From Candidatus Binatia bacterium (lineage in GTDB: Bacteria; Desulfobacterota; Binatia; UBA9968): a stretch of DNA of 64,000 nt. Below the pieces are notes generated by a model. The model was not told the origin of the DNA and ran no database searches. It worked only from the letters and a program-made list of their open reading frames with translations. A program made the position numbers and the translations under genes. Below are positions 48,580-64,000 of this stretch, piece by piece. Each line of letters starts with the position of its first letter. Position 1 is the stretch's first letter. The stretch lies in the NCBI GenBank assembly GCA_036506735.1, contig DASXRG010000152.1, positions 3,226 to 67,225 on the forward strand, given 5' to 3'.

Positions 48580-50796
48580 ATGGCGAAAAAAGTTGTCGGC
48601 AATCCGACGCCGAGAGTGGAAGGCGAATATAAAGTAACCGGCAAGGCGATGTATGCGGCCGATGTAACGCTTCCGGGAATGCTGTGGGGCAAGACTTTGC
48701 GCAGCCCGATTTCTTACGGGCGCATCAAAAAAATCGATCCTAGCCGCGCGCTACAGCTGCCGGGCGTCCACGCGGTCGTCACCGGAGAAGACGTGACCGG
48801 ACTCAAGATCGGCAGGAAGCTTTACGATATGCCGATCCTCGCCGACGGCGTCGTACGCTTCATCGGCGAAAAAGTCGCCGCGGTCACGGCGGACGACGAG
48901 CATACCGCCGAAGAGGCGGTGAATTTGATCGACGTGGAATACGAAGAACTGGCGCCGGTGCTGGATCCCCTCAAAGCGATGGAGCCCTCCGCGCCGATCT
49001 TGCACCCCGACGTGCCGAATTATAAAGGCCTGCCCAACAAGCTGGCGGCGGCCACCAACGACTTCATCTATGTCACCTGGAAAAAAGGCGACCTCGAAGC
49101 GGGTTTTCGCGAGGCGGACATCGTCGTCGAGAATATGTTCTATACCAACCCGGTCCATCAAGCTTACATCGAGCCGCACTCGTGCATGGTCAGCGCGGCG
49201 CCGGACGGCTCGGCGGAAATCTGGGCGTGCAGCAAGGTGCCGTACGGGCTGCGCGAGCAGGTGGCCAACGCCGTGCGCACCACGCCCGATAAGCTCGTCG
49301 TCCATCCGTGCTACATCGGCGGCGACTTCGGCGGCAAGGGCGACTTCATGGACGTCGCGCTGGTTTACGTCATGTCGAAAAAAAGCCGCCGGCCGGTCAA
49401 GATGGTGATGGATTACGACGAGGAGTTCGTGGCCGGCAATCCGCGCCACGCGTCGGTGATTCGAGTGAAAACCGGCGTCAAGAAAGACGGCGCGATCGTC
49501 GCGCATCACATGGAATTCGTCTTCGACAGCGGCGCTTACGGCGCGTTCAAGCCCAACGCGTTTCTCGGCGGCCCGCACGCCTCCGCCGGGCCGTACAAGA
49601 TTCCCCACGTGTTCATCGAGGAGCACATGGTCTACACGAATAAAATTCCGTGCGGCCACATGCGCGCCCCGGGCGACCCGCAGGGCTTTTTCGCCAACGA
49701 AAGCCAGCTCGACCTGGTCGCCAAGAAGCTCGGGATGGACCGGATCAAATTTCGACAAAAAAATCTGATGCACGACGGCGACCAGGACCCGACCGGCGAG
49801 ACCGTCCACTACATCAAGACCGAAGAGACGCTCGAGCGCGCTCTGAAAGACGCGGATTTTTACCGGCCCAAGCCCAAGAACGTCGGGCGCGGCGTGGCGC
49901 TGGTCCAGTGGATGCCGAACGGCGGCTCGGGCACGGTGCGAATCGAGATCGACGCAGAAGGCACGGCAACCATTTCTTCCGCGATGCTCGATCAAGGCGC
50001 CGGAACATATACGCTCCTATGCGAGATCATCGGACAGGAACTGGAAATCCCGCTCAATCAAATCAAAGTCGAAATTCTGGATACCAAGACCGGCAAGCAG
50101 GACACCGGCGTCGGCGCGAGCCGCGCGACGCGGGTCTACGGCAACGCGGCTTACCAGGCGGCGATCAAGGCGGTCGAGGAGATCAAGCGCGTGGCCGCGG
50201 AACAGATGAAGACCTCGCCGGATCAACTCACGCTCGCGAAAGGCGGCGTGCAGCCCAAGCGCGGCGGCAAGCGCGTGAGTTACGCCGATCTTGTCAAAGC
50301 GAAGGGCTCTCCGATCGCCGTCGAAGCGACTTACAGCGACACTTCTAAAGTTCACGAGGCTTCGATGTGCGCTCAGGTCGCGGAAGTGGAAGTCGATCCC
50401 GAGACCGGGCAGGTAAAGCTCAGAAAATTTACCTCGACGCACAACACGGGAACCGTCATCAATCCGCTTATGCATCAGGGGCAGATCGAAGGCGGCGCCA
50501 TGATGGGAATCGGTTACGCTCTCATGGAGCATCTCATGATCTCCGACGGCAAAGTGACGACGACGCACTTCGGCGACTACAAAATTCCCACGATTCAAGA
50601 CGTCCCGGTATTCAAGACTTCGGTTACTCAGAGACTGAAGGGTGCCGGGCCGTATCACAGCATGCCGATCGGTGAGACTACCAATATTCCGGCGGCGGCC
50701 GCGATCGCCAACGCCGTCGAGGACGCCGTGGGAGTGAGGATCAACTCGCTGCCGATTACGGCGGAAAAAGTGCTGGCGGCGCTCCGCGGCGCGTGA
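48580..50796 (+). CDS. xanthine dehydrogenase / aldehyde oxidase family molybdopterin-binding large subunit
   Basis: 738 aa. GEYKVTGKAMYAADV, QAYIEPH, GGDFGGKG and GQIEGGAMMGIGYAL are typical of the Mo-hydroxylase large subunit. Confidence 0.9.
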   Translation: MAKKVVGNPTPRVEGEYKVTGKAMYAADVTLPGMLWGKTLRSPISYGRIKKIDPSRALQLPGVHAVVTGEDVTGLKIGRKLYDMPILADGVVRFIGEKVAAVTADDEHTAEEAVNLIDVEYEELAPVLDPLKAMEPSAPILHPDVPNYKGLPNKLAAATNDFIYVTWKKGDLEAGFREADIVVENMFYTNPVHQAYIEPHSCMVSAAPDGSAEIWACSKVPYGLREQVANAVRTTPDKLVVHPCYIGGDFGGKGDFMDVALVYVMSKKSRRPVKMVMDYDEEFVAGNPRHASVIRVKTGVKKDGAIVAHHMEFVFDSGAYGAFKPNAFLGGPHASAGPYKIPHVFIEEHMVYTNKIPCGHMRAPGDPQGFFANESQLDLVAKKLGMDRIKFRQKNLMHDGDQDPTGETVHYIKTEETLERALKDADFYRPKPKNVGRGVALVQWMPNGGSGTVRIEIDAEGTATISSAMLDQGAGTYTLLCEIIGQELEIPLNQIKVEILDTKTGKQDTGVGASRATRVYGNAAYQAAIKAVEEIKRVAAEQMKTSPDQLTLAKGGVQPKRGGKRVSYADLVKAKGSPIAVEATYSDTSKVHEASMCAQVAEVEVDPETGQVKLRKFTSTHNTGTVINPLMHQGQIEGGAMMGIGYALMEHLMISDGKVTTTHFGDYKIPTIQDVPVFKTSVTQRLKGAGPYHSMPIGETTNIPAAAAIANAVEDAVGVRINSLPITAEKVLAALRGA

Positions 50797-50799
50797 CGT

Positions 50800-51087
50800 G
50801 TGAACAATCTTTCGTCACCCTTCGACAGGCTCAGGGTGACCGACCCTTATCCACTGCGTCTTCTCTCGGATCCGAAAGCCGATCTGATTCGAGCGGCCGG
50901 GGTGGCGAACGAGGGCCATTGGGCCGGTTTGATTTCGCATCCGGTCACGTTCGTCGTCGATCGGCAGAGAATCGTCCGATGGATTTACACCGGCGACAGC
51001 GCGTCCGATCGCCCGAGTCCGGTCGCCCTGGCGAAGACGGCCGTGATGGTTGCGAGAGGAGAACCGCTGCCGGAGGAACATGGCTAG
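50800..51087 (+). pseudogene. C-terminal fragment of a peroxiredoxin-like (AhpC/TSA) gene fused to a repeat element
   Basis: YPLRLLSDPKADLIRAAGV...HPVTFVVDRQRIVRWIY..DRPSP resembles only the C-terminal half of Bcp-like redoxins. The catalytic-Cys half is absent. The first 14 codons are the GTCACCC..GGGTGAC hairpin element (50814-50840). Confidence 0.45.
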
Positions 51088-51100
51088 GTCCTCTCGGATT

Positions 51101-51160
51101 GTCATTCTGAGGCGCAGCCGAAGAATCTCGGAGAGATCCTTCGCTTCGCTCAGGATGACA
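51101..51160. repeat. family 2 hairpin element (GTCATTCTGAGGCGCAGCCGAAG / inverted partner)
   Basis: Left arm at 51101-51123. The reverse complement of the right arm (51139-51160) reads GTCATCCTGAGCGAAGCGAAGG. The left arm matches 1858-1880 at 22 of 23 nt. Confidence 0.65.
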
Positions 51161-51197
51161 TGCCAACTGTGACTTCCGCATCTGGAAGGAGTCAGTC

Positions 51198-52031
51198 ATG
51201 TCTGACCACGCCAAGCCGCTTGAAACCGTTCCCGGCGTAGGATCATCGGTTCCCGAATGGCCGAAAAGTTCCGCGTCGGATCACTGGATACACATCGAGG
51301 AAAGTCCACGGCGCGTGCGCGTAACTTTCGGCGGCGCGACGATCGCCGACAGTAAGCGCGTTCTGCTTCTCCGCGAATCTAAATGCTTACCGGTCTACTA
51401 TTTTCCGAGCCAAGACGTGCGCCTGGACCTCATGCAGCCTACGACTAAGCGGACTCAGTGCCCCTATAAGGGCGACGCTTCCTACTGGACGATTGTCGTC
51501 GGCTCAAAGACCGCGGAAAATGCAGTGTGGAGTTACCTCGATCCACCGGCCTCGGCGGCGGCGATCAGAGGATGTTTCGCTTTTCAATGGACTTCGATGG
51601 ACGCCTGGCGCGAAGAAGAGGAAGAGATCTTCGTCCATCCGCGCGATCCCTACAAGCGGGTGGATGCGCTGCAAAGCTCCCGGCACGTTCGGATCGTGGT
51701 CGCCGGCGAGACCGTCGCCGATACGCGCCGGCCGCGTCTCCTCTTCGAGACCGGCCATCCATCGAGATATTATATCCCGCTGGACGATATCAGGCAGGAT
51801 TTGTTGCTGCGGTCCGAGACGACTTCCCGCTGTCCTTACAAAGGGCCCGCCTCTTACTGGTCGGTCAAAATAGGCGACAAAATTTTTCCGGACCTGGCGT
51901 GGAGCTATCTCGATCCGATTGCCGAGTGTCCGAAAATCAAGGGGCTGCTCTGCTTTTTTCAAGAACGGGAGGCGACGATCCACGTCGATGGGGAGGAATT
52001 GCCCAAGCTCTGGACGAAATGGTCCAGGTGA
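51198..52031 (+). CDS. tandem DUF427-domain protein
   Basis: Two copies of the pattern VRV.FGG..IADS...LL.E...P.YYFP..DV...L.....T.CPYKG.ASYW. Confidence 0.75.
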   Translation: MSDHAKPLETVPGVGSSVPEWPKSSASDHWIHIEESPRRVRVTFGGATIADSKRVLLLRESKCLPVYYFPSQDVRLDLMQPTTKRTQCPYKGDASYWTIVVGSKTAENAVWSYLDPPASAAAIRGCFAFQWTSMDAWREEEEEIFVHPRDPYKRVDALQSSRHVRIVVAGETVADTRRPRLLFETGHPSRYYIPLDDIRQDLLLRSETTSRCPYKGPASYWSVKIGDKIFPDLAWSYLDPIAECPKIKGLLCFFQEREATIHVDGEELPKLWTKWSR

Positions 52032-52062
52032 AAGAAAGTGAGCAGTGAGCAAAGAGAAAACC

Positions 52063-53012
52063 ATGAAAGCGCTTTACTGGGATGGAAACGATTTAACGCT
52101 TAAAGCCGCACATCCGACGCCCGCGCAAAGCCGCGACCAAGCTCTCGTCCGCGTCCGTCTCGCCGGTATCTGTTCTACGGACCTTCAGATCTTCCAAGGC
52201 TACATGGGATTTCGCGGCGTGCCCGGGCATGAGTTCGTCGGCGAGGTGATGGAAGGCCCGCCCGCCCTGGCGCGCAAGCGCGTCGTCGGCGAGATCAACT
52301 TCGGTTGCGGCCGGTGCGAATTTTGCCGGCGCGGGCTAAGCCGTCACTGTCCGAAGCGGCAAGTGATGGGCATTCTCGGCGCGGACGGCTGCTTCGCCGA
52401 AGTCGTCGCCGTGCCCGCGCGCAATCTTCATCCGGTTCCGGAGAGCGTGTCGGATGAAGAGGCGGTTTTCACCGAGCCGCTGGCGGCGGCGTTCGAAATT
52501 CTCGAACAGGTCGAGATCGATTTTACGCGTGAAGTCCTGGTCTTCGGCGACGGCAAGCTCGGGCTTCTCTGCGCTCAGGTTCTGGCGCTCACCGGCGCGC
52601 GCGTGACGCTCGTCGGAAAGCATCCCAACAAGCTCGCGATGGCCAAGAAGGCCGGCGTGCGCTCTGTTCTGCTGTCCGATTGGCAGTCGCGTCCGGCGGA
52701 CATCGTCGTCGAAGCGACCGGTTCGGCGTCCGGCCTCGAGACGGCTCTCGGCGCGGTGCGCCCGCGCGGCACGCTGGTTCTGAAGAGCACGGTGGCCGAG
52801 GAGCACAAACTTTCGCTCGCGCCCGTGGTGATCAACGAGATCAACGTCGTCGGCTCGCGCTGCGGCCTTTTCCCTCCGGCGCTCGATGCGCTGGCGCAAA
52901 AAAAACTCGCCGTCACCCGATGATCGAGAAAATCTACCCATTAAGTGAAGGTCTTGATGCTGTCGCGCACGCCCGCCGGACCGGAGCGCTTAAAGTACTG
53001 CTGAAGAGCTAG
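52063..53012 (+). pseudogene. zinc-type MDR alcohol dehydrogenase with a 1-nt frameshift about 30 codons before the end
   Basis: GICSTDLQIFQGY..PGHEFVG and GKLGLL motifs. The frame ends at TGA 52921-52923, but the expected C-terminus PMIEKIYPLSEGLDAVAHARRTGALKVLLKS continues in the +2 frame to 53012. Confidence 0.65.
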
Positions 53013-53059: not shown

Positions 53060-53100
53060 TTGACAAATACCTCGCCAGATTGGTATATAGCGCCAATTTG
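53060..53100 (+). promoter_or_regulatory. sigma70-like promoter with conserved downstream box (TTGACA-N17-GTATATAGCGCCAATTTG)
   Basis: TTGACA at 53060-53065 and TATATA at 53084-89. The 18-mer at 53083-53100 recurs at 61777-61794 with one mismatch. Confidence 0.5.
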
Positions 53101-53143: not shown

Positions 53144-54892
53144 ATGAATTATTTTCACCCGTACGCGCCTTCACTGGACGAGACGATAATCACTGCGTGG
53201 GATTCTCAGGTCGCCGAGACTCCGTGGCTGGCGCCATCGCTGGCGGCGCAGACTGCTGATTTATTCCCCCGCTTCGCCGTCGCTTACGCCCAGTTGCGCG
53301 CCTTGCCGCGCGGCGCGCGCCGCGCGCTGCAGCGTCAACTCGCGCACTCGCAAGAGCTGGCGACGATTCCGTCTGAGTGGCAACAGAAGCTGGCCCGCTC
53401 GCTGGCCGGCGCGGCGCTGCTGTTGGCGCTTAGCCACGGAGTAGCACAGGCGAACACGATCACGGTTAACACAAACGTTCCGAAGATCATCACAGACGGC
53501 AAGTGTTCGCTGGTCGAGGCGATCATCAATGCCAACAACGACGCCGCGACACACGTCGACTGCGCGGCAGGCAGCGGCGCGGACACGATCGTGCTGCCGG
53601 CGGCCAGTGTTCATACGGTTTTAACCGACTACGATTTTACCTATGGCGCGACACGTCTGCCGGCGATCACGAGCCAAATCACGATTCAAGGAAACGGCAG
53701 CACGATAAACCGAAAGAAGAGCAAGTTACTGTCGCGTCTCATCGCTGTTGCGGCGAGTGGCGATCTCACGCTGGATCGGGTCACCTTAAGCGGCGGGGGG
53801 CAATACAATGGCGGTGCCATTATTAACTTAGGGAGTCTAACGGCCACGAATAGTACGATCTCAGGCAATACGGCTGTCAAAGGCGGCGGCATATACAATG
53901 CCGGCGGCGCTCTCTCTGTCGAAGAAGCTCTCTTTACCAAGAATGCAGGGGTCTATGGCGCCGGGATATTCGACTACAGCGGCACGACCGATATCGAGCA
54001 GAGCACTTTCACGGGTAACAGGACGGTGTATGGCGGGGCCGCTGTATATGGTCGCTTTGGTACGGTAACCATCCAAAACAGTACCATCACCGGTAATAGA
54101 GCCAGCCGTGCCGCGATCTATAATCAAGGCGGCATCCTCGAAATTCACAATACTATTATCACCAAGAACAGCGCTTCAGAGCATGGCGGCGGAGTGATGT
54201 CCAATAATAACCGGAGCTTTTCGCCGCCACCGTGTTCGGTGACGATCGAAAACAGCACGATTAGCGCCAACGCGGCTCATTATGATGGCGGCGGGATCGA
54301 GAACGAAAGCTGCACACTGGTCGTTAGCAACAGCACAATATCGGCCAACAAGTCCGGAACGGGTGCTGGCGGAATATCTACGGGTTTTGCACCGAGTCTG
54401 ATTGAGAACAGCACGATTTCCGCAAACAGTGGGAGATATACAGGCGGGGTGTACGGAGCTACCATCACGGTCACAAACAGCACCATCACGGGTAACAGGG
54501 CGAAATTAGTCGGCGGGGTTTACAATCGAGGCGACATGACTGTAAAGCGGACTATTGTGTCGGGAAACAAAGGGCCGGTGGGTGAGGCCTTAAGCAATCC
54601 CTCCGGGACGATGACCGTCGATAATTTCAACCTCTTCGGCACCAACGGCAATGCCGGGGTCAGCGGATTTACCGCTGGCGCCAGTGATATCATCCCGGGT
54701 GCCGGCGTCCTCACCGGCAATATCCTCGCGCCGCTGGCGAACAACGGCGGGCCGACTCAGACGCATGCCCTCGTCGCCGGTAGTCCGGCGATCGACGCAT
54801 CACCGGTCGACGCGGATTGTCCGTCCAGCGACCAACGTGGAACCTTGCGACCACAGGGTCCGCTGTGCGACATAGGTGCTTTCGAAAAGTAG
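53144..54892 (+). CDS. beta-helix paralogue A: conserved N-extension, signal-like segment, CSLREA-type domain, Pmp-like parallel beta-helix repeats, choice-of-anchor-Q-type C-terminus
   Basis: ATG at 53144 lies 5 nt after AAAGGAG. Order of elements: MNYFHPYAP..., LAGAALLLALSHGVAQA, ITVNT...DGKCSLVEAIINAN, a dozen or more coils of about 23 aa (NSTISGN..GGGIxN), then NNGGPTQTHALVAGSPAIDA...DQRGTLRPQGPLCDIGAFEK. Confidence 0.85.
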   Translation: MNYFHPYAPSLDETIITAWDSQVAETPWLAPSLAAQTADLFPRFAVAYAQLRALPRGARRALQRQLAHSQELATIPSEWQQKLARSLAGAALLLALSHGVAQANTITVNTNVPKIITDGKCSLVEAIINANNDAATHVDCAAGSGADTIVLPAASVHTVLTDYDFTYGATRLPAITSQITIQGNGSTINRKKSKLLSRLIAVAASGDLTLDRVTLSGGGQYNGGAIINLGSLTATNSTISGNTAVKGGGIYNAGGALSVEEALFTKNAGVYGAGIFDYSGTTDIEQSTFTGNRTVYGGAAVYGRFGTVTIQNSTITGNRASRAAIYNQGGILEIHNTIITKNSASEHGGGVMSNNNRSFSPPPCSVTIENSTISANAAHYDGGGIENESCTLVVSNSTISANKSGTGAGGISTGFAPSLIENSTISANSGRYTGGVYGATITVTNSTITGNRAKLVGGVYNRGDMTVKRTIVSGNKGPVGEALSNPSGTMTVDNFNLFGTNGNAGVSGFTAGASDIIPGAGVLTGNILAPLANNGGPTQTHALVAGSPAIDASPVDADCPSSDQRGTLRPQGPLCDIGAFEK

Positions 54893-54896
54893 GCCT

Positions 54897-56660
54897 ATGA
54901 ATTATTTTCAGCATGTTTCTCTAGCGGCGGATCAGACGATTATCGCCGCGTGGGACTCGCAAGTTGCAGAAGCGATCGGAACGCCCGAGGTTGAGGAGCT
55001 CTTAGTGCAGCGGGGAGGCGAGTTGTTTGCGCGCTTCGCTGTGTGCTACGCGCAGTTGCGCGCATTGCCGCGGGGCGCCCGCCGCGCTCTGCTGCGTCAA
55101 CTCACGCGGTCGCAAGTCCTGACGGGCATTTCACCTGAGTCGCAACGCAATCTCGCGCGCACGTTGGCCGGGGCGGCGTTGGTGCTTGCGCTGGGACAAG
55201 GAGTGGCTCAATCGGCCACGATTACCGTCAACACAAACATTCCAACGATTCTTGCGGACGGAAAGTGTTCGCTCGTCGAGGCGATCATCAACGCCAACAA
55301 CGACGCTTTAACCCATCCGGACTGCGCAGCGGGCAGCGGCGCCGACACGATCGCGCTGCCTGCGGCCAGCGTGCACACGATTTTAACCGATTACGACTCC
55401 ACGTATGGCGCCACGCGGTTACCGGCGATCACGAGCCAAATCACCATTCAAGGAAACGGCGGCAAGATCACGCGGAAGAAAAGTAAGCTCCTCTCGCGCT
55501 TAATTGCCGTGGCCAGCTCAGGAGACCTTACACTGGACAATGTAAGCGTAAGCGGCGGGGCGCAATATTTCGGCGGCGCCATAGTTAATTTTGGCATGCT
55601 CACGATTACGGACAGCACACTCTCCGGCAATACGGCCGTCCGCGGCGGCGCCATATATAACTACACGGACGGCGCGGTCACAATTTCTAATAGCGTCATA
55701 ACCGGCAATAAAGCCGCCTATGGCGGCGCGGGTATATTTACGTACCGCGGCGCAGTCACTGTAGAGAGCAGCGCCTTAACAAAAAATGTCGCTCCTTATG
55801 GCGGGGGCGTCTATAGCTACAATGGGACGGTGAGTATCGAGAATAGCACCATATCAAGCAATACGGGCTATCGCGGGGGTGGAATTCGTTATCATGGGGG
55901 AGAGTTCACCATCGAGCGCAGCCTCGTTGCAAACAATAAGGCTGCCGCCAGTGGAGGCGGTATCTCAGGCGAAGACAACGGAACTCTCACCATAAGCAAC
56001 AGCGTCATTTCGGGCAATAGCACCCCTTCGTTTGGCGCCGGCATATCGCTGGCTTCCGCCTACGTGACAATCGAAAACAGCACGATCTCCGGCAACAAGG
56101 CAGGTTACGCGGGTGGCGGCATTGCGAATTTCGGGGCATTTCTAATCATCGAGAACAGCACGATTTCCGGCAACAGTGCCAAGAGGATCGGCGGCGGCCT
56201 ATGGAACCAAGGGCCCGCCGCTCTTAGCCAGACGACCATTTCAAGCAATAGCGTAAAAAATATCGGCGGGGGCATTTACAACTCGTTCAATCAACTGACT
56301 TTGAACCGTAGTCTTGTTTCCGGTAACAAGGCCGGAGTCGGACCTGAAATAAACAATCGCAGCTCGAATTCGGCGACGGTCGTCGCCGATAACTTCAACC
56401 TCTTCGGCGTCAACGGCAATTCCGGGGTCACGGGCTTTGCCCCCGGTGTGTCCGACATCGTACCTCCCGCCGGCGTTCTTATCAGCAACATCCTCGCGCC
56501 GCTCGCGAACAACGGCGGGCCGACTCAGACGCATGCGCTCGTCGCCGGTAGTCCGGCGATCGATGCATCACCGGCCGACGCGGATTGTCCGTCCACCGAT
56601 CAGCGCGGCACTTTGCGACCCCAGGGCCCGCTCTGCGACATCGGCGCTTTCGAAAAATAA
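54897..56660 (+). CDS. beta-helix paralogue B
   Basis: ATG 4 nt after the stop of A. Same architecture as A. The segment after AAWDSQVAE in the N-extension is more divergent. Confidence 0.85.
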   Translation: MNYFQHVSLAADQTIIAAWDSQVAEAIGTPEVEELLVQRGGELFARFAVCYAQLRALPRGARRALLRQLTRSQVLTGISPESQRNLARTLAGAALVLALGQGVAQSATITVNTNIPTILADGKCSLVEAIINANNDALTHPDCAAGSGADTIALPAASVHTILTDYDSTYGATRLPAITSQITIQGNGGKITRKKSKLLSRLIAVASSGDLTLDNVSVSGGAQYFGGAIVNFGMLTITDSTLSGNTAVRGGAIYNYTDGAVTISNSVITGNKAAYGGAGIFTYRGAVTVESSALTKNVAPYGGGVYSYNGTVSIENSTISSNTGYRGGGIRYHGGEFTIERSLVANNKAAASGGGISGEDNGTLTISNSVISGNSTPSFGAGISLASAYVTIENSTISGNKAGYAGGGIANFGAFLIIENSTISGNSAKRIGGGLWNQGPAALSQTTISSNSVKNIGGGIYNSFNQLTLNRSLVSGNKAGVGPEINNRSSNSATVVADNFNLFGVNGNSGVTGFAPGVSDIVPPAGVLISNILAPLANNGGPTQTHALVAGSPAIDASPADADCPSTDQRGTLRPQGPLCDIGAFEK

Positions 56661-56666
56661 GAGCGT

Positions 56667-58160
56667 ATGAATTATTTTCAGCCATACGCGCTGGACGAAA
56701 CGATAGTCGCTGCGTGGGATTCTCAGATCGCCGAGACACCGTGGCTGGCGCAATCGGCGGCGGCGCAGAGTGCTGATTTATTTCCGCGCTTCGCAACCTG
56801 CTACGCGAAGTTGCGCGCATTGCCGCGGGGCTCGCGCCGGGCGTTGCAGCGGCAGCTCGCCCGCTCCCAAGGACCGGCGGCGATTCCGCTGGAGTGGCAG
56901 CCAAAACTCGCGCGCGCGTTGGCCGGAGCCGCGTTGTTGCTGGCGCTGCGACAAGGTTCAGTGCAGGCGGCCACGATAACGGTCAACACAAACATTCCGA
57001 AGATTCTTGCAGACGGCAAGTGTTCGCTGGTCGAGGCCATGGTAAACGCCAATGATACGGCTACAGGTCAGCCCTACGCGGACTGCGCGGCGGGCGATCC
57101 TACCGGAGCCGATACGATCATCCTGCGCAAAGGGACTCAAACGCTCGTAGATTTCTACTACTATGGGCTTGGTTTGCCGCCGGTTACCAGCCAGATCACG
57201 ATTCAAGGCAACGGCGCCAAGATTGTCCGCGCAAAGAATGCACCGGACTTCGGTCTGTTCTTGGTGCGTTCGTATGGTGGCGACCTCACACTCAATAATC
57301 TGACACTCAGCGGGGGTACTCAGTATGTCGGCGCTGTATCTAATCACGGAACTCTCAGAATCACCAACTGTGTCATCACAGGAAACCGAGCCGTAAGCGG
57401 CGGCGGAATATATAATCGCGGCCTTGGCTATATAAGCGACAGCACAATCTCGACAAATAGGGCGACATTCGGCGGCGGCGTGTTCAACATCGGCTCTCTA
57501 CGAATCATTAACTCTGTCATTACCGGTAACACGGCCAGCGGTTTCGGCGGCGGCGTTGATAACGCCTACAGTATCAGCCTTTCTATCGAGAACAGCACTA
57601 TCACGAAAAATTCGTCGGATAACGGCGGCGGGGTAAGCAACTATGGAGGTACCTTTAAAATCTCCAACAGCACCATTTCGAAGAACACAGCTATCCACGA
57701 TGGAGGCGGCGTTTACAACAATCCCGCATATGATGGCAGCTCTTCGTCTATTATCGGCAGCACCATCACGGGAAATAGCTCGGTTAGAGGTGGCGGAGTG
57801 TTTAACTCACGCAACAACTATAGTTACGGCTTCAAAACCACTCTTTCGATCAGCAACAGCACGATCTCAAAGAATTCGGCGACAAATGGCGGCGGTATAT
57901 TCAGCGAGTACCCCGGCGCCGGTCTTGCGACGATGCTCTACGTGAACCAAAACAGCACGATCCAAGGAAACAAAGCTGGCAATGACGGCGGCGGCGTTTA
58001 TAACGGGAGCTACTTTTACCTCGATAACAGCGCAATCTCAAAGAATTCGGCAGGGGCCCGCGGCGGCGGCGTGTTCAATGCGACCCCGTATGTTTTCTCC
58101 CCGACTAACAGCACGATCAGCGGCAACAAGGCGGCTGTTGGACCGAACGTTTTTCTGTGA
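56667..58160 (+). CDS. beta-helix paralogue C, lacking the C-terminal choice-of-anchor-Q-type domain
   Basis: ATG 6 nt after the stop of B. Same N-extension, signal-like segment and CSLVEAM motif. Ends ...SGNKAAVGPNVFL where the other paralogues continue for about 100 aa. Confidence 0.8.
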   Translation: MNYFQPYALDETIVAAWDSQIAETPWLAQSAAAQSADLFPRFATCYAKLRALPRGSRRALQRQLARSQGPAAIPLEWQPKLARALAGAALLLALRQGSVQAATITVNTNIPKILADGKCSLVEAMVNANDTATGQPYADCAAGDPTGADTIILRKGTQTLVDFYYYGLGLPPVTSQITIQGNGAKIVRAKNAPDFGLFLVRSYGGDLTLNNLTLSGGTQYVGAVSNHGTLRITNCVITGNRAVSGGGIYNRGLGYISDSTISTNRATFGGGVFNIGSLRIINSVITGNTASGFGGGVDNAYSISLSIENSTITKNSSDNGGGVSNYGGTFKISNSTISKNTAIHDGGGVYNNPAYDGSSSSIIGSTITGNSSVRGGGVFNSRNNYSYGFKTTLSISNSTISKNSATNGGGIFSEYPGAGLATMLYVNQNSTIQGNKAGNDGGGVYNGSYFYLDNSAISKNSAGARGGGVFNATPYVFSPTNSTISGNKAAVGPNVFL

Positions 58161-58201
58161 GCGTCGCCGGGTTTAGTTTGGCGCTTTAGTCAAAAAACAC
58201 C

Positions 58202-59962
58202 ATGAACTACTTGCGGCCTTACGCGCCTCCACTGGACGTGACGATAGTCGCTGCGTGGGATTTTCAGATCGCCGAGACACCGTGGCTGGCGCAATCGGCG
58301 GCGGCGCAGAGTGCTGATTTATTTCCGCGCTTCGCAACCTGCTACGCGCAGTTGCGCGCATTGCCGCGGGGCGCCCGCCGCGCGCTCCAACGTCGACTCG
58401 CGAGCTCGCAAGACCTGGCGGCGATTCCGCCTGAGTGGCGACAGAAACTGGCGCGCTCCGTGGCCGGCGCAGCGTTGCTGTTGGCGCTGGGGCAAGGAGT
58501 AGCTCAGGCGGCCACGATAACGGTCAACACAAACATTCCGAAGATTCTTGCTGACGGAAAGTGTTCGCTCGTCGAGGCGATCATCAACGCCAACAACGAC
58601 GCTTTAACCCATCCGGACTGCGCAGCGGGCAGCGGCGCCGACACGATCGTGCTGCCAGCAGCCAGTGTCCATACGGTATTAAACGATTACGATTTCACCT
58701 ATGGCGCCACCCGTCTGCCGGCGATCACGAGCCAAATCACGATCGAAGGAAACGGCAGCAAGATTACGCGAAAGAAAAGTAAAGTCCAGTCTCGATTAAT
58801 GGCTGTAACGACTACCGGCGATCTGACCCTCAAGAACGTGACGCTCAGTGGGGGGCAACATTCCTATGGAGGTGCGCTGTTCAATTATGGCGGTCTCATG
58901 ATCAACGAGAGCACCATTACAGGAAACAGTGCCGTTACAGGTGGAGCGGTAGCTAACGGTGCCGGTGCCGGCCTCGTTATCGAAGATAGCCTCTTTTCGA
59001 AAAACACGGCTGTTACCGGTGGCGGGATTTTTAATTATAAAGGCGATGTCACGGTTCGTAACAGTAGTCTCACCGGACACAAGACGATCTTCAGCGGCGG
59101 CGGTTTGTATGATGTTTCCGGGACCGTAACGATCGAGAGCGTGATCATTGATGGAAATAAGGCCGGCGCCGGCGGCGCCATCTATGCCAAAGGTAGCCTG
59201 CTCGACGTTAACAGCAGCATGATCTCGGGGAACAGCGCCGGTAGTCACGGCGGCGGCATTTGGATCGCTTCTACTCTTGGCGGCAGCGCCACAGTAACGA
59301 TTGCAAATAGCACGGTCGCGGGTAACAAGGCTCACTACAGTTCTGCCGGAATCCTACACCAAAACTTCGGCGGCACGCTTACGATTCAGAACAGCGCCGT
59401 TTTAGGCAATACTGCAAGTGCAGGCGGCGGAGGGATCGAGCAGACGTCCGGGACCATGACGATTGAGAATAGCACTATTTCCGGTAACCGCGGCGGTTCT
59501 GAAGGTGCCGGTATATGGAATCAGAACACTGCAACAATTCGTAATAGCACTATCTCGGGTAATACATCTAAACGGAGCGGGGGAGTTCGCAATTCGGGAC
59601 AACTTACACTCGATCGGAACCTTATTTCCGGTAATAAAGCCGCAGTCGGGCGTGAAATCTACAGTTACACGAGCGGCACGGTCGTCGCCGACAACTTCAA
59701 CTTATTTGGTAATAACGGCAGTGCGGGCGTGGTAGGTTTCTTACCCGGCGCCACCGACATCGTGCCGGGCGCCGGCGTCCTCATCAGCAACATCCTCGCG
59801 CCGCTCGCGAACAACGGCGGGCCGACTCAGACGCATGCGCTCGTCGCCGGTAGTCCGGCGATCGATGCATCACCGGCCGACGCGGATTGTCCGTCCACCG
59901 ACCAACGTGGAACCTTGCGGCCACAGGGTCCGCTCTGCGACATCGGCGCTTTCGAAAAATAA
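58202..59962 (+). CDS. beta-helix paralogue D
   Basis: Same architecture. The 5' end is nearly identical to C, an internal block is identical to B, and the 3' end is a B-like then A-like chimera. Confidence 0.85.
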   Translation: MNYLRPYAPPLDVTIVAAWDFQIAETPWLAQSAAAQSADLFPRFATCYAQLRALPRGARRALQRRLASSQDLAAIPPEWRQKLARSVAGAALLLALGQGVAQAATITVNTNIPKILADGKCSLVEAIINANNDALTHPDCAAGSGADTIVLPAASVHTVLNDYDFTYGATRLPAITSQITIEGNGSKITRKKSKVQSRLMAVTTTGDLTLKNVTLSGGQHSYGGALFNYGGLMINESTITGNSAVTGGAVANGAGAGLVIEDSLFSKNTAVTGGGIFNYKGDVTVRNSSLTGHKTIFSGGGLYDVSGTVTIESVIIDGNKAGAGGAIYAKGSLLDVNSSMISGNSAGSHGGGIWIASTLGGSATVTIANSTVAGNKAHYSSAGILHQNFGGTLTIQNSAVLGNTASAGGGGIEQTSGTMTIENSTISGNRGGSEGAGIWNQNTATIRNSTISGNTSKRSGGVRNSGQLTLDRNLISGNKAAVGREIYSYTSGTVVADNFNLFGNNGSAGVVGFLPGATDIVPGAGVLISNILAPLANNGGPTQTHALVAGSPAIDASPADADCPSTDQRGTLRPQGPLCDIGAFEK

Positions 59963-60137
59963 TCGTTGTCGGCCTCGTTTTTTCTCGCCAGCCTCCAGTT
60001 TACTGTAGGGAAAATCCGTCAGTTTAGCCTCCAGTAAACTTTTTTTCCAAACCCACGTCTAAGTAAGTGCCAGTTTACTTACATGGGGTTTCTACCTGCA
60101 TGTTCGCGCTCAGGATACAGAAAGTTGAGGAACCAGC

Positions 60138-61721
60138 ATGAATTATTTTAGTCCGTTCTCGCTTTCCGCAGACGAAACGGTACTCGCCGCGTGGGATTCG
60201 CAAGTTGCTCAAGCGTCGGAGGATCCCTTTCTTGCCGAGGCGTTGGCGCAGGCTGGAAGCGAGATGTTGCCGCGCTTTGCCGCCCGTTACGCGCAGTTGC
60301 GCGCGTTGCCCCGCGGCGCCCGCCGCACTCTCCAGCGCCAATTGGCGCGTTCGCGCGAGCTGGCCACGATTTCGCCGGAGTGGCAGCCAAAACTCGCGCG
60401 CACGTTGGCCGGCACCGCGTTGTTGCTAGCCCTCGCGCACGGCGTCAGCCAGGCCGCGACGATAACGGTCAACACCAACATTCCGAAGATCAATCCGGAC
60501 GGACTATGCTCGCTGATCGAGGCGATCGTCAATGCCAACGACGACGCTGCAACCCATGCCGATTGCGCCGCGGGCAGCGGCGCGGACGTAATCGATCTGG
60601 CGCCGGCCAGCATCCATACGGTCACGAACAAGTTCGTCCAATATCATGGCGCCACCGGCCTGCCGACGATTACGAGCCAAATCACGATCGACGGCAACGG
60701 CGGCAAGATCGTCGCTAAAAGAGGCGCGTCGTTTCGCTTGTTGGCGGTGGAAAGCTCAGGGGATCTTACCCTATCGAACGTGACCGTGAGCGGCGGGTCG
60801 CAAAATCATGGCGGCGCGATATTTAGCTATGGCACGCTCACGATCAACGACAGCACGATCACCGCGAGCAAGGCCAACTTGGGCGGCGGCGTATTCAACG
60901 GCGCAGCCGCCGTTCTCAACATCGACGGCAGCACCATTTCGAAGAACACGGCGGCATACGGCGGCGGCTTGTACGATTACAGCGGCGCCGTCACCATCGC
61001 CAACAGCACGATCACCGGCAACAAGGCGTTCATCGACGGCGGCGGCATTTACGAACGCTCCGGTACTCTCACGGTCACGTACAGCACGATTTCGAAAAAC
61101 ACCTCGATTCGCGACGGCGCCGGCCTGCACGGCCGCGACAGCTACGCTACGATCGGCTACAGCACGATCTCCGGCAACACCGCCGGCTTCTTCGGTTACG
61201 GCGGCGGCGTTTACGACCGCTCGAGCACGACCACGATCGAAAACAGCACGATCTCAGGCAACAAGGCGAGAGCCGGCGCCGGCATATTCACGCGCGCGAC
61301 GCTCACCGTTTCCAACAGCACGATCGCGAAAAATACCGCCGACGACGGCGGCGGGATATTGAACCTGCGCGATCTGACTCTCAAGCGCACCCTGATATCG
61401 GGCAACTCCGCGTTCATCGGGCGGGAGATCGACGATTTCGACACGGTCACGCGGAATAATTACAACTTGTTCGGTAACAACGGCTACGACGGCGTTATCG
61501 GTTTTTCGCCAGGGGGAACGGACATCGTGCCCGGCGTCGGTCTTGCCGGCATCATCGGTCCGCTCGCCAACAACGGCGGCCCGACGCAGACGCATGCGCT
61601 GGTTACCGGGAGTCCGGCCATAGATGCGGCTCCTGCGGATGCCGACTGTCCCGCGGCCGATCAGCGCGGCACCGCGCGGCCGCAAGGAGCGAGCTGCGAC
61701 ATCGGTTCTTTCGAAAAGTAG
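60138..61721 (+). CDS. beta-helix paralogue E (higher-GC, most divergent copy)
   Basis: Preceded by a 175-nt spacer and GAGGAA. Same architecture: MNYFSPFS..., LAGTALLLALAHGVSQA, DGLCSLIEAIVNAN, NSTITGN coils, and DQRGTARPQGASCDIGSFEK. Confidence 0.85.
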   Translation: MNYFSPFSLSADETVLAAWDSQVAQASEDPFLAEALAQAGSEMLPRFAARYAQLRALPRGARRTLQRQLARSRELATISPEWQPKLARTLAGTALLLALAHGVSQAATITVNTNIPKINPDGLCSLIEAIVNANDDAATHADCAAGSGADVIDLAPASIHTVTNKFVQYHGATGLPTITSQITIDGNGGKIVAKRGASFRLLAVESSGDLTLSNVTVSGGSQNHGGAIFSYGTLTINDSTITASKANLGGGVFNGAAAVLNIDGSTISKNTAAYGGGLYDYSGAVTIANSTITGNKAFIDGGGIYERSGTLTVTYSTISKNTSIRDGAGLHGRDSYATIGYSTISGNTAGFFGYGGGVYDRSSTTTIENSTISGNKARAGAGIFTRATLTVSNSTIAKNTADDGGGILNLRDLTLKRTLISGNSAFIGREIDDFDTVTRNNYNLFGNNGYDGVIGFSPGGTDIVPGVGLAGIIGPLANNGGPTQTHALVTGSPAIDAAPADADCPAADQRGTARPQGASCDIGSFEK

Positions 61722-61753: not shown

Positions 61754-61805
61754 TTGACAGGGCGCGGTTAAATTTAGTATATAGCGCCAGTTTGTAGCGC
61801 TATAT
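61754..61805 (+). promoter_or_regulatory. sigma70-like promoter with the same conserved box, plus a 9-bp inverted repeat reaching the start codon
   Basis: TTGACA at 61754-61759 and TATATA at 61778-83. GTATATAGCGCCAGTTTG at 61777-61794. ATATAGCGC (61779-87) / GCGCTATAT (61797-61805). Confidence 0.5.
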
Positions 61806-64000
61806 GGCCGAAGTTCCTCCCTCGCCGCAGGACGCTGCCTTGCGCAGCGTTCACACCGCAAACCTGCCGGCAATCTTCGATCAGCTCCAAATCAGTGTCG
61901 TCGTTTCCACCTATCAGGCGGGCAAAACGATCCTCGTCCGCAACGACAACGGCACGCTCAACACCCACTTCCGCACATTTGCCAAGCCGATGGGGATCGC
62001 CGCGGATCACGCGCGGCTCACGATCGGCGGCTCGAACACGGTTTGGGAATACCGCAACATGCCGGCCGTGGCGGAGAAACTGGAGCCCGCCGGGAAACAC
62101 GACGGCTGCTATCTCCCGCGCCGCATCCATGTGACCGGCGACATCGACATCCACGAGCTCGCGTGGGACCGCGACAACGAGCTGTGGATCGTGAACACGC
62201 GTTTTTGCTGTCTCTGCACGCTCGACGCCGACCACAGCTTTCATCCGCGCTGGCGCCCGAAGTTCGTCACGGCCTTGGCGCCCGAGGATCGGTGCCATTT
62301 GAACGGCCTCGCGATGGTCGATGGCCGGCCGAAATACGTCACGGCGCTGGGTGAGACCGACACGGCCGGCGGCTGGCGCGCGAACAAGGCCAAGGGCGGT
62401 ATTCTGATGGACGTCGAGACCGACGAAATCCTGCTGCGCGGTCTCTCGATGCCGCACTCGCCGCGCTGGTATCAGGGGAAGCTCTGGGTGCTCGAATCAG
62501 GCGAAGGGAGCTTGGCGCTGGTCGATCTCGACAAGCGCACGTGGCGCACCATCGCGCAAGTGCCCGGCTTCACGCGCGGGATCGATTTTCTCGGCCCGCT
62601 CGCATTCATCGGGCTCTCGCAGGTGCGCGAGAGCGCGGTGTTCAGCGGCATTCCACTGGTCCAGCGGCTCAGCGAGCGCACCTGCGGTGTGTGGGTGGTG
62701 AATATAGAAACCGGCCAGACCGTCGGCTTTCTCCGCTTCGAGGCGGGTGTGCAAGAGATCTTCGCGGTGCAGCTCCTGCAAGGCATCCGTTTTCCCGAGA
62801 TGCTGGAATGGAACGACCCGCGGGTCTCTCAGTCATATGTCCTTCCCGACGAGGCGCTCGCCGATGTGGTTCTTCCCACCGCGGAAGAGCTGGCGCGCAG
62901 TCCGGCGTTCCACTTCCAACGCGGCAATGAATTTTATGACCAGGGCAAGCTCGGCGAAGCCATCGCCGCGTATCGCCAGTGCGTCGCCGTCCAGCCGGAT
63001 TTTCCCAATGCGCGCTACAATCTCGGCGTGGCGCTCGGCGACGCCGGGCGATATCAGGAGGCGACGAGCTGGTTGCAGCAGGTCGTCGAGGCCGAGCACG
63101 AAAAAGCCGAAGCGCACAACAGCCTGGGATTCGTTCTCGCCCGGCAGCGTCAGCCGCGTAAAGCGATCGCGTGCTACGAGCGCGCGATCGAGCTGCAACC
63201 GAATTATATTCAAGCGCATGTCAATCTCGGCATGAGCCTGCTGCAAATCGGCGACTACGCGCGCGGCTTCGCCGAATACGATTGGCGCTCAAAGCTGACG
63301 CCGATGCCGTTTCAATCGTCCCATCCCAAATGGGACGGCAGTCCGATAGCGGAGAAGACGCTTCTCGTCCCTGCCGAGCAGGGCGCCGGCGACGCGATTC
63401 AATTCGCGCGCTATCTGCCGCTGGCGGCAAAGCTTTGCCGGAAATTGGTCGTCATGTGCCGCGCGGATCTGATTCCGCTATTTTCCACTCTGCCCGGAAT
63501 AGCCGAGCTGCGGCAACCCGGCCAGATCGGGATGGCGGAGTTCGATACCTACCTGCCGCTGCTCAGCCTGCCGCGCGTGTTCGGCACAACCGTCGATGCG
63601 ATTCCCGCGGACGTGCCGTATATCGATAGCGCCGCGCTCCGCCGGCGCAGAGACGATCCGTCCCTGCTCTTGCCGGCCGCGTCGTGTCCGCGCGTCGGCA
63701 TCGTTTGGGCGGGGAGCCCGGACAACCGCACCGACAGCCAGCGCTCGTGCGCATTGGCGGAGTTTCTGCCGCTTCTGCGCATTCCAACCTTGGCGTTCTA
63801 CAGCTTGCAAAAAGGAGAGCGCGCGAAAGATCTCGCCGATGTGCCTGCCGCGGTGACCGATCTGCAGCCGCTGCTCGGCGACTTCGGCGATACCGCCGTG
63901 ATCGTCGATCAACTCGATCTGCTCATCACCGTCGATACGGCGGCGGCCCACCTGGCCGGAGCGCTCGGCAAGCCGGTGTGGAATCTGCTGACCGACGTCG
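61804..64000 (+). CDS. TIGR03032/DUF4915-like domain + TPR repeats + GT9 (heptosyltransferase-like) glycosyltransferase fusion; 3' end beyond window
   Basis: Not in the supplied ORF track. My own translation from the ATG at 61804 is open for 732 codons to base 64000: MAEVPPSPQD...VVVSTYQAGKTILVRN...ELAWDRDNELWIVNTRFCCLCTL...HPRWRPKFVTALAPEDRCHLNGLAMVDGRPKYVT... then TPR units (AIAAYRQCVAVQPDFPNARYNLG, AHNSLG, AHVNLG), then EQGAGDAIQFARYLP...VGIVWAGSP...ITVDTAAAHLAGALGKPVW. Confidence 0.85.
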   Translation, partial: MAEVPPSPQDAALRSVHTANLPAIFDQLQISVVVSTYQAGKTILVRNDNGTLNTHFRTFAKPMGIAADHARLTIGGSNTVWEYRNMPAVAEKLEPAGKHDGCYLPRRIHVTGDIDIHELAWDRDNELWIVNTRFCCLCTLDADHSFHPRWRPKFVTALAPEDRCHLNGLAMVDGRPKYVTALGETDTAGGWRANKAKGGILMDVETDEILLRGLSMPHSPRWYQGKLWVLESGEGSLALVDLDKRTWRTIAQVPGFTRGIDFLGPLAFIGLSQVRESAVFSGIPLVQRLSERTCGVWVVNIETGQTVGFLRFEAGVQEIFAVQLLQGIRFPEMLEWNDPRVSQSYVLPDEALADVVLPTAEELARSPAFHFQRGNEFYDQGKLGEAIAAYRQCVAVQPDFPNARYNLGVALGDAGRYQEATSWLQQVVEAEHEKAEAHNSLGFVLARQRQPRKAIACYERAIELQPNYIQAHVNLGMSLLQIGDYARGFAEYDWRSKLTPMPFQSSHPKWDGSPIAEKTLLVPAEQGAGDAIQFARYLPLAAKLCRKLVVMCRADLIPLFSTLPGIAELRQPGQIGMAEFDTYLPLLSLPRVFGTTVDAIPADVPYIDSAALRRRRDDPSLLLPAASCPRVGIVWAGSPDNRTDSQRSCALAEFLPLLRIPTLAFYSLQKGERAKDLADVPAAVTDLQPLLGDFGDTAVIVDQLDLLITVDTAAAHLAGALGKPVWNLLTDV

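Follow-up and report, generated by a model that had tools for sequence, protein, structure and literature searches.

A conserved N-terminal extension, predicted to be helical, precedes the signal-peptide-like segment of five tandem beta-helix proteins encoded beside a propeller-TPR-GT9 protein in a Binatia bacterium

Introduction

The signal peptides of bacteria tend to be short and poorly conserved, and to our knowledge a folded, strongly conserved domain of 80 residues ahead of a signal peptide is rare. The ESPR, the leaders of serine-rich-repeat proteins and the twin-arginine translocation (Tat) leaders with chaperones have each revealed a distinct coupling of maturation to export. Here we describe a conserved extension of 80-85 residues which stands ahead of a signal-peptide-like segment in five tandem genes of a Candidatus Binatia bacterium. 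The genes lie within 64,000 nucleotides (nt) of contig DASXRG010000152.1 (the window), next to a gene predicted to encode a glycosyltransferase.

Several described systems share parts of this layout. The serine-rich-repeat glycoproteins GspB and Fap1 of Gram-positive bacteria, which use the accessory Sec system, have a signal peptide of ~90 residues with an extended n-region; they are adhesin-like, are glycosylated in the cytoplasm before export, and features of their hydrophobic region (h-region) matter for routing. In Tat leaders that undergo REMP proofreading (the pairs TorA/TorD and DmsA/DmsD), a cytoplasmic factor binds the leader and holds export until maturation. In type V secretion, GT9-related bacterial autotransporter heptosyltransferases (BAHTs) or HMW1C-type enzymes glycosylate beta-helical passengers in the cytoplasm (PMC8151025, PMC4358343), and some passengers carry extended signal peptides which slow or redirect export (PMC8151025, PMC4358343, PMC2805444). 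AIDA-I, TibA and Ag43 are passengers which a co-encoded GT9-related heptosyltransferase glycosylates in the cytoplasm before export (PMC8151025, PMC4358343), and the BAHTs are characterised by an iron-finger motif and a dodecameric assembly (PMC4358343).

Results

Five tandem genes share a translated and constrained N-terminal extension

Five tandem open reading frames (ORFs) of 497-587 codons each, all starting MNYF/L, occupy positions 53144-61721 on the + strand of the window. In each of the five paralogues 80-85 conserved residues stand ahead of the signal-peptide-like segment, and the presequences (the first 101-106 residues) have a mean column identity of 79% when aligned. Searched as a degenerate DNA pattern, the AAWDSQ element of the extension matches at exactly five places, which are the five paralogues, against 0.79 expected by chance. 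An earlier note on this DNA had claimed a conserved extension of ~80 residues in all five paralogues, with a consensus, and a signal-like hydrophobic segment beginning near residue 85. The extension is indeed present in all five, the consensus proved essentially right when compared with the alignment of the presequences, and the hydrophobic core begins at residue 83-88 and ends V-A-Q-A/A-T-I-T-V, the slash marking the predicted cleavage site.

The extension is translated and under purifying selection. Between paralogues its synonymous divergence (dS) is 0.3-1.5 and its ratio of nonsynonymous to synonymous divergence (dN/dS) is 0.18-0.45, indistinguishable from that of the mature part (0.20-0.31). 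Close to the starts, AGGAG stands 6 nt ahead of the ATG in paralogue 1, and GAGGA precedes that of paralogue 5. No in-frame ATG is present near the hydrophobic segment in the five window genes; only TTG and GTG codons occur, inside the segment, and starts at these would leave a signal without a basic n-region. In 14 related genome loci the match starts at MNY/MDY in 12, and the in-frame open stretch upstream is 1-46 codons long, mostly below 20.

An exhaustive profile search against 1.84 billion cluster representatives (clusters at 50% identity) returned 362 proteins at E <=1e-3, roughly 300-860 aa in length, in which the module is N-terminal and mostly begins at residue 1. These proteins are mostly from metagenome-assembled genomes (MAGs) labelled Binatia, the NCBI labels of which vary, and all of the members inspected have the same kind of passenger, a CSLxEAI / choice-of-anchor-Q beta-helix. 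With at least 362 clusters at 50% identity, the module makes up a domain family not described before, and it is tied to a single passenger family. The recurrence in 362 clusters, together with the dS and dN/dS values, shows that the conservation of the presequences exceeds what recent duplication alone would leave. Positions 2-4 of the NCBIfam model for the RbtA family (TIGR04212) align to residues 83-88. Related beta-helix proteins therefore start at the position of this signal segment, and the ~80 residues ahead of it are a true add-on. The search for presequence homologues returned only proteins of <=224 aa, fragments or frameshifted, so architecture was taken from the representative search and from fetched loci; an exact-sequence look-up of the window protein found no match on record.

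Many of the homologues from long-read MAGs are frameshifted in or just after the presequence, for example with ATITVTTN read as GHNHRHDK (L008-L011, L013, L015 and L016; P0021, P0063, P0065, P0070, P0072 and P0098). The recurrence of frameshifts at this spot is probably due to homopolymer assembly errors.

Anatomy and conservation of the presequence

Distant relatives are without MNYF and retain a core, AW(Q/D)xQ(V/I)A ... P.L ... EL.PRFA..Y..LRALPRxxRRALQR, followed by SLAGxALLLALGxGxAxA/A. The spacing between the RR and the hydrophobic core falls into discrete classes of 6-9 (short form), 22-26 (window form) and 31-35 residues (long form), and the insert of the long form looks, from its residues, like a duplication of an RRxLQRxxAxS unit. 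Among 81 representative homologues, LPRxxRRALQR is the best-conserved stretch within the first 140 residues, at 3.63 bits per column, and the hydrophobic core reaches 3.23 bits per column versus 2.71 for the start of the mature protein. R56 is invariant and R59/R60 are conserved at >=90% in the alignment of relatives; within the core, G89 is found in 81/81 representatives and L92, L93 and L96 each in at least 79. Because the motif and the h-region are more conserved than the start of the passenger, sequence-specific recognition appears more probable than generic targeting.

The signal segment itself runs from K/R-LA-x-S through the core LAGAALLLAL and a G-Q-G break to A-Q-A, after which the mature protein opens with ATITVNT. 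Position -1 is Ala in 80 of the 81 representatives and position -3 is A, V, G or S in 79. Read from the sequence, the segment has what is expected of a substrate of Sec and signal peptidase I, namely a basic n-region, a core of 7-15 residues, a breaker and small residues at -3/-1. It is predicted to be a cleavable signal of the signal peptidase I type, and conservation at -3/-1 makes a cleaved presequence more likely than a permanent anchor. The description of the segment in the earlier note as an ordinary Sec signal is thus apt for the A-x-A site and the anatomy of the core, but not for the conservation of the core, which is far greater than in ordinary signal peptides.

AlphaFold2, run on an alignment of 114 sequences, placed helices at residues 11-25, 30-53, 56-68, 77-85 and 87-99 (paralogue 1 numbering). 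The model of the extension is moderate, with a predicted local distance difference test (pLDDT) score of 66 overall and 70-82 in the helices, and a predicted template modelling (pTM) score of 0.53; the extension is accordingly predicted, at moderate confidence, to be a domain of 3-4 helices.

Searches against known families

Pfam and NCBIfam searches at E <=10 gave no real match to residues 1-109 or to the leaders of the short form; DUF4726, ASH2L_WH, CwsA and HrpV appeared below cut-off and were rejected as noise. A PDB sequence search with the presequence profile returned nothing below E = 0.5, and the best Foldseek match of the AlphaFold2 extension model in the PDB had an E value of 1.4 and a TM score of ~0.3. 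The statement in the earlier note that the extension could be matched to no family therefore survives these searches.

Families with long or unusual leaders were also absent. ESPR (PF13018) had no match at E <=1 with the full proteins or at E <=10 with the isolated presequences, and the Tat models PF10518 and TIGR01409 had none at E <=10, isolated short-form leaders included. There was no NCBIfam match to KxYKxGKxW (TIGR03715), nor is this motif in the presequence alignment. Scans of the paralogues with Pfam and NCBIfam revealed no type V translocator domain, either an autotransporter beta-domain or one for two-partner secretion (TPS). Anti-sigma N-terminal domains of the zf-HC2, RskA and FecR-N types gave no Pfam match and no Foldseek match below E = 1, and no sigma factor gene was found among the conserved neighbours.

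The beta-helix passengers

After the presequence, each mature part follows the order ATITVNT, CSLxEAI motif, right-handed beta-helix with PMP-type repeats and C-terminal choice-of-anchor Q domain. The latter (NF041518, cut-off 25) reaches 82.5-86.2 bits in paralogues 1, 2, 4 and 5, and was not found in paralogue 3. Pfam recognised only Beta_helix and Chlam_PMP in the paralogues, and the matches to TIGR04212 (RbtA) are partial, at 38-46 bits versus a cut-off of 295.

Paralogue 3 is shorter, at 497 aa, and its end, ...AAVGPNVFL, is like that of some relatives in L003 and L006, a subgroup with ...GADVYP/GADIFP in this place. In P0248, P0238, P0258 and L008:6001-7548, the same presequence goes with C-termini that differ past the choice-of-anchor Q domain; the added modules are RTX-type GGxGxD repeats, thrombospondin-type-3-like repeats, a domain of ~85 aa repeated four times and DUF4214-like repeats.

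A propeller-TPR-GT9 protein is the conserved neighbour

All-vs-all clustering of the ORFs of the window and the 14 genome loci gave only one conserved neighbour besides the paralogues, a protein of ~800 aa with a DUF4915/TIGR03032 propeller, TPRs and a GT9-like domain. The TIGR03032/DUF4915 match has an E value of 5e-126, and the closest solved relatives of the TPRs are those of human OGT (E = 5e-42). Against PF01075 (cut-off 22), the GT9-like domain of the full-length L002 orthologue scores 29.9 bits and that of the window copy, which is cut by the window end, just 16 bits; matches to TIGR02193 are weak. As the protein has no N-terminal hydrophobic segment or signal peptide, it is likely to be cytoplasmic.

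In the AlphaFold2 model, DUF4915 folds as a beta-propeller with six blades, of the Kelch-like kind (pLDDT 85, pTM 0.87). Foldseek matched it to generic six-bladed propellers only (Kelch, SAKe designs and LDLR YWTD) at a TM score of ~0.5, and such matches show the fold class and nothing about function. The family has more than 5,000 matches; among the 120 best listed, identity over the whole protein is 67-80%. Identity in the DUF4915 domain reaches 87%. The domain contains many invariant Cys and His residues (in HVTGDIDIHE, NTRFCCLCTLD, EDRCHLNG and SMPHSPRW), which suggests that it houses a metal or catalytic site and does not act as a mere scaffold. In the literature on DUF4915, TIGR03032, choice-of-anchor Q, CSLREA and Binatia, nothing was found on the presequence module and no work was found on DUF4915/TIGR03032.

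The extension genes are genomically linked to the gene for this predicted glycosyltransferase. Of 41 loci seeded with the extension, 18 have it adjacent and in the same orientation, the other 23 having no visible glycosyltransferase and many of them being contigs of <5 kb. Of 10 MAGs, 9 have it beside one or more extension genes. When distinct loci were seeded with the glycosyltransferase instead, three of five had an adjacent extension gene (L042, L043 and L046/47). Spacing is close, the two genes usually abutting: in L002 the extension gene starts (3303) just before the glycosyltransferase ORF ends (3306), so that they overlap, and the gap in the window is 82 nt.

Other features of the locus

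The coordinates of the paralogues and the associated features are collected in Table 1. The sequence upstream of paralogue 1 resembles an extended -10 promoter and is a weak candidate for one; it lies outside the rule set of the consensus scan, which did not report it. Between paralogues 4 and 5 there is a terminator-like hairpin with a U tract, directly downstream of which is a second hairpin, and from the former it appears that paralogue 5 and the glycosyltransferase gene may be a transcription unit of their own, separate from paralogues 1-4.

Table 1. Positions in the window of the five paralogues, their presequences and associated features.
Feature	Coordinates	Strand	Basis or remark
Possible promoter: TTGACA, 15-nt spacer, TGgTATATA	53060..53089	+	Read by eye; ~55 nt upstream of paralogue 1 ATG
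Paralogue 1 gene	53144-54892	+	ORF
Paralogue 1 presequence	53144-53452	+	First 103 codons; the segment singled out in the earlier note
Paralogue 1 N-terminal extension (residues 1-82)	53144..53389	+	Alignment, AlphaFold2 helices, dN/dS
LPRGARRALQR motif (residues 54-64 of paralogue 1)	53303..53335	+	Best-conserved presequence element
Paralogue 1 signal-peptide-like segment LARSLAGAALLLALSHGVAQA, predicted cleavage after AQA	53390..53452	+	Alignment; conservation of G89, -1 and -3
Paralogue 1 mature part: CSLVEAI, right-handed beta-helix with PMP-type repeats, C-terminal choice-of-anchor Q	53453..54892	+	Pfam, NCBIfam
Paralogue 2 presequence (gene end 56660)	54897..55214 (extension 54897-55151, signal segment 55152-55214)	+	
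Paralogue 3 presequence (gene end 58160)	56667..56969 (extension 56667-56906, signal segment 56907-56969)	+	
Paralogue 4 presequence (gene end 59962)	58202..58510 (extension 58202-58447, signal segment 58448-58510)	+	
Terminator-like hairpin and U7 between paralogues 4 and 5	59997..60047	+	Minimum free energy z = -3.1
Paralogue 5 presequence (gene end 61721)	60138..60455 (extension 60138-60392, signal segment 60393-60455)	+	
DUF4915/TIGR03032 propeller, OGT-like TPRs and GT9-like domain	61804..64000, runs past window end	+	Profile hidden Markov models, PDB search, AlphaFold2

Upstream of the array (48580-52923 in the window), genes for a molybdopterin subunit of the xanthine dehydrogenase type, a DUF427 protein and a Zn-dependent alcohol dehydrogenase are syntenic with those of L001, L004, L006, L007 and L046. 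As L006 has the same upstream synteny as the window, its Verrucomicrobiia label is doubtful.

In L041 (378-7892), from a MAG labelled Gammaproteobacteria, three secreted proteins are encoded directly upstream of the glycosyltransferase gene: a choice-of-anchor-Q beta-helix, a Calx-beta protein of 1073 aa and a protein of 845 aa. All three have ordinary signal peptides and share a basic C-terminal domain of ~70 residues, ending in ...R(I/L/H)KRR at the stop codon, which had no NCBIfam match. This domain may serve as a tag in place of the N-terminal extension.

Discussion

Comparison with described leaders and partners

Like the type V proteins with an ESPR, the proteins described here have a conserved N-terminal add-on before a canonical Sec signal, and are long, beta-helical and secreted. 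The ESPR is, however, ~25 residues long, whereas the extension here is 60-85 residues with 3-4 predicted helices and no sequence match to it, and unlike type V proteins the window paralogues have no autotransporter beta-barrel or TPS domain. The partner also differs from the dodecamer of the TibC/Aah type, as in the window it is a propeller-TPR-GT9 fusion, and the host lineage is one of uncultured Binatia-type bacteria. The very long presequence with its extended n-region recalls GspB and Fap1, but there is no KxYKxGKxW, there are no SecA2, SecY2 or Asp genes among the conserved neighbours, the passenger is of another type and the host is presumably diderm. With the Tat leaders subject to REMP proofreading the module shares an invariant RR, a conserved leader and, as a proposal, a cytoplasmic factor whose binding to the leader would delay export until maturation is complete; it differs in having RRALQR and not RRxFLK, placed 22-26 residues from the h-region in the window, in the lack of a TAT_signal match and in a passenger that binds no cofactor. 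The mature part, with CSLxEAI and PMP-type repeats, is like that of the Rhombotarget A, CSLREA and choice-of-anchor Q proteins (TIGR04212, NF041518), but those families begin directly with the signal peptide, whereas here the extension comes first, and there is no GlyGly-CTERM. In concept the module, whose proposed function is putative, extends the theme of the extended signal peptide and does not form a separate category.

Proposed role of the extension

The role that we favour, tentatively and at somewhat less than even confidence, is that the presequence is bipartite and that its cytoplasmic helical part controls the handling of the preprotein before export, probably by docking or holding it for the glycosyltransferase. 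Each paralogue would be made with a presequence of ~103 residues, the C-terminal 21 of which would act as a cleavable signal peptide, while the ~80 N-terminal residues, helical and centred on the near-invariant LPRxxRRALQR, would stay at the cytoplasmic face. Binding in the cytoplasm would involve the helical domain and probably the conserved hydrophobic core as well, and would delay export of the beta-helix preprotein. Meanwhile the operon-encoded propeller-TPR-GT9 enzyme would glycosylate the Ser/Thr-rich repeats, after which the signal peptide would engage the translocon and be cleaved. Binding in the cytoplasm and glycosylation before export are proposed because of the analogy with type V secretion and because the partner has two protein-binding modules, the TPRs and the propeller; the linkage of the genes and the conservation of the presequence are what point to a pre-export step.

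A more specific version is leader-guided glycosylation with proofreading, in which the propeller and/or the TPRs would bind the LPRxxRRALQR helix and the core, keep the signal peptide masked while the repeats are being glycosylated, and release it afterwards. This is possible, although doubtful. If true, it would give an uncultured phylum a secretory counterpart of the leader peptides of ribosomally synthesised and post-translationally modified peptides (RiPPs) and of REMP proofreading in the Tat pathway.

Several observations weigh against the favoured role. In L041 the glycosyltransferase gene adjoins a choice-of-anchor-Q beta-helix with an ordinary signal peptide and no extension, so that the extension is unnecessary for the pairing of enzyme and passenger, and the enzyme is better described as tied to the passenger family, usually but not strictly to the extension. 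At L044/45 the glycosyltransferase locus has no extension or beta-helix neighbour. The co-occurrence with the TIGR03032-TPR-GT9 gene, which the earlier note had put forward as a check, is therefore real but not exclusive. The match to GT9 is a weak one, AlphaFold2 models the extension with moderate confidence only, and the link between the extension and the TPRs or propeller, like the acceptor and the sugar, is putative. N-x-S/T sequons in the NSTISGN repeats of the paralogues are not enriched over shuffles (p = 0.12-0.55), and for this reason no claim is made as to N- or O-linkage.

Alternative explanations

The earlier note had offered three candidate roles for the extension, as an extended signal peptide, as the cytoplasmic domain of a type II anchor or as a handle for a dedicated modification or export factor, and all three stay candidates, with the -3/-1 site speaking for cleavage. 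The extension could be an export timer or router, comparable to the ESPR or a serine-rich-repeat leader, which alters the route or slows translocation against misfolding of the long beta-helix, the neighbouring enzyme having no direct part in this. The layout is that of known extended signal peptides, an N-terminal add-on with a canonical signal on beta-helical passengers (PMC8151025, PMC2805444), and the pairing of the glycosyltransferase with an extension-free passenger in L041 fits with it. An extension about three times the length of the ESPR, predicted to be a folded helical unit and without a match to its sequence, is less readily accommodated, and this explanation accounts neither for the tight gene linkage to the glycosyltransferase nor for the size of the domain; the conservation of the motif and the h-region suggests in addition a specific binding partner. 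We regard a timer without an enzyme role as rather unlikely.

Alternatively the hydrophobic segment may be an uncleaved signal anchor, an N-in/C-out transmembrane helix that tethers the beta-helix to the inner membrane and leaves a signalling or docking domain of 80 residues in the cytoplasm, in an anti-sigma-like layout. The core is as conserved as a functional transmembrane helix might be, G89 and the three leucines above all; AlphaFold2 draws a continuous helix over residues 77-99 after the helical domain; and in the paralogues no C-terminal anchor follows the choice-of-anchor Q domain. Strong hydrophobicity is nevertheless confined to a core of only ~11 residues, which is followed by G-Q-G and the conserved A-x-A, which is typical of cleaved signals, no extracytoplasmic function (ECF) sigma factor or other regulator is a conserved neighbour, and the searches for anti-sigma N-terminal domains in Pfam and with Foldseek were negative. 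An anchor is accordingly judged unlikely, a little more so than a timer.

It is also conceivable that the RR of LPRxxRRALQR is a twin-arginine and the helical n-region a proofreading or chaperone-binding region, the beta-helix being exported by Tat in a folded and possibly glycosylated state. Export of folded proteins would suit cytoplasmic glycosylation, the RR is nearly invariant, and the h-region is Ala/Gly-rich and conserved, as those of Tat leaders tend to be. In the short forms the RR is 6-9 residues before the h-region (T-R-R-A-L-Q-R-K-x3-SLAG), which is a compatible spacing, and long forms bear a second RRxLQ adjoining it. All five window paralogues, however, have the RR 22-26 residues away, and the position next to the h-region reads QQK, QRN, QPK or RQK, without RR. 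Gln also occupies the position that is hydrophobic in S/T-R-R-x-F-L-K, and the two Tat models failed to match even the short-form leaders. A Tat leader is in our view the more improbable of these last two explanations.

Finally, the notion that translation really starts near the hydrophobic segment, the upstream 80 codons being an untranslated leader, could appeal to the unusual length of the presequence and to a subset of long-form relatives with a Met just before the h-region (HRMAWSLAG), but this mis-called start, which the earlier note had named as a way in which it could be wrong, is effectively refuted by the purifying selection and many synonymous changes in the extension, its amino-acid conservation across the 362 clusters, the short upstream in-frame space and AGGAG before the first ATG, and the lack of a usable downstream start in the window genes.

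Significance

The size of the module, the conservation of its hydrophobic core and its pairing with DUF4915-TPR-GT9 proteins make it notable to specialists in export and glycosylation. The family occurs in widespread Binatia-type bacteria of soil and groundwater and is tied to abundant, uncharacterised TIGR03032/DUF4915-TPR-GT9 enzymes. If the extension is only an export timer, the concept of the extended signal peptide still reaches beyond type V secretion. If the link to the enzyme is functional, it would give the DUF4915 proteins their first testable role, in the glycosylation of proteins before export, and the leader and enzyme would form a portable pair of possible use in glyco-engineering.

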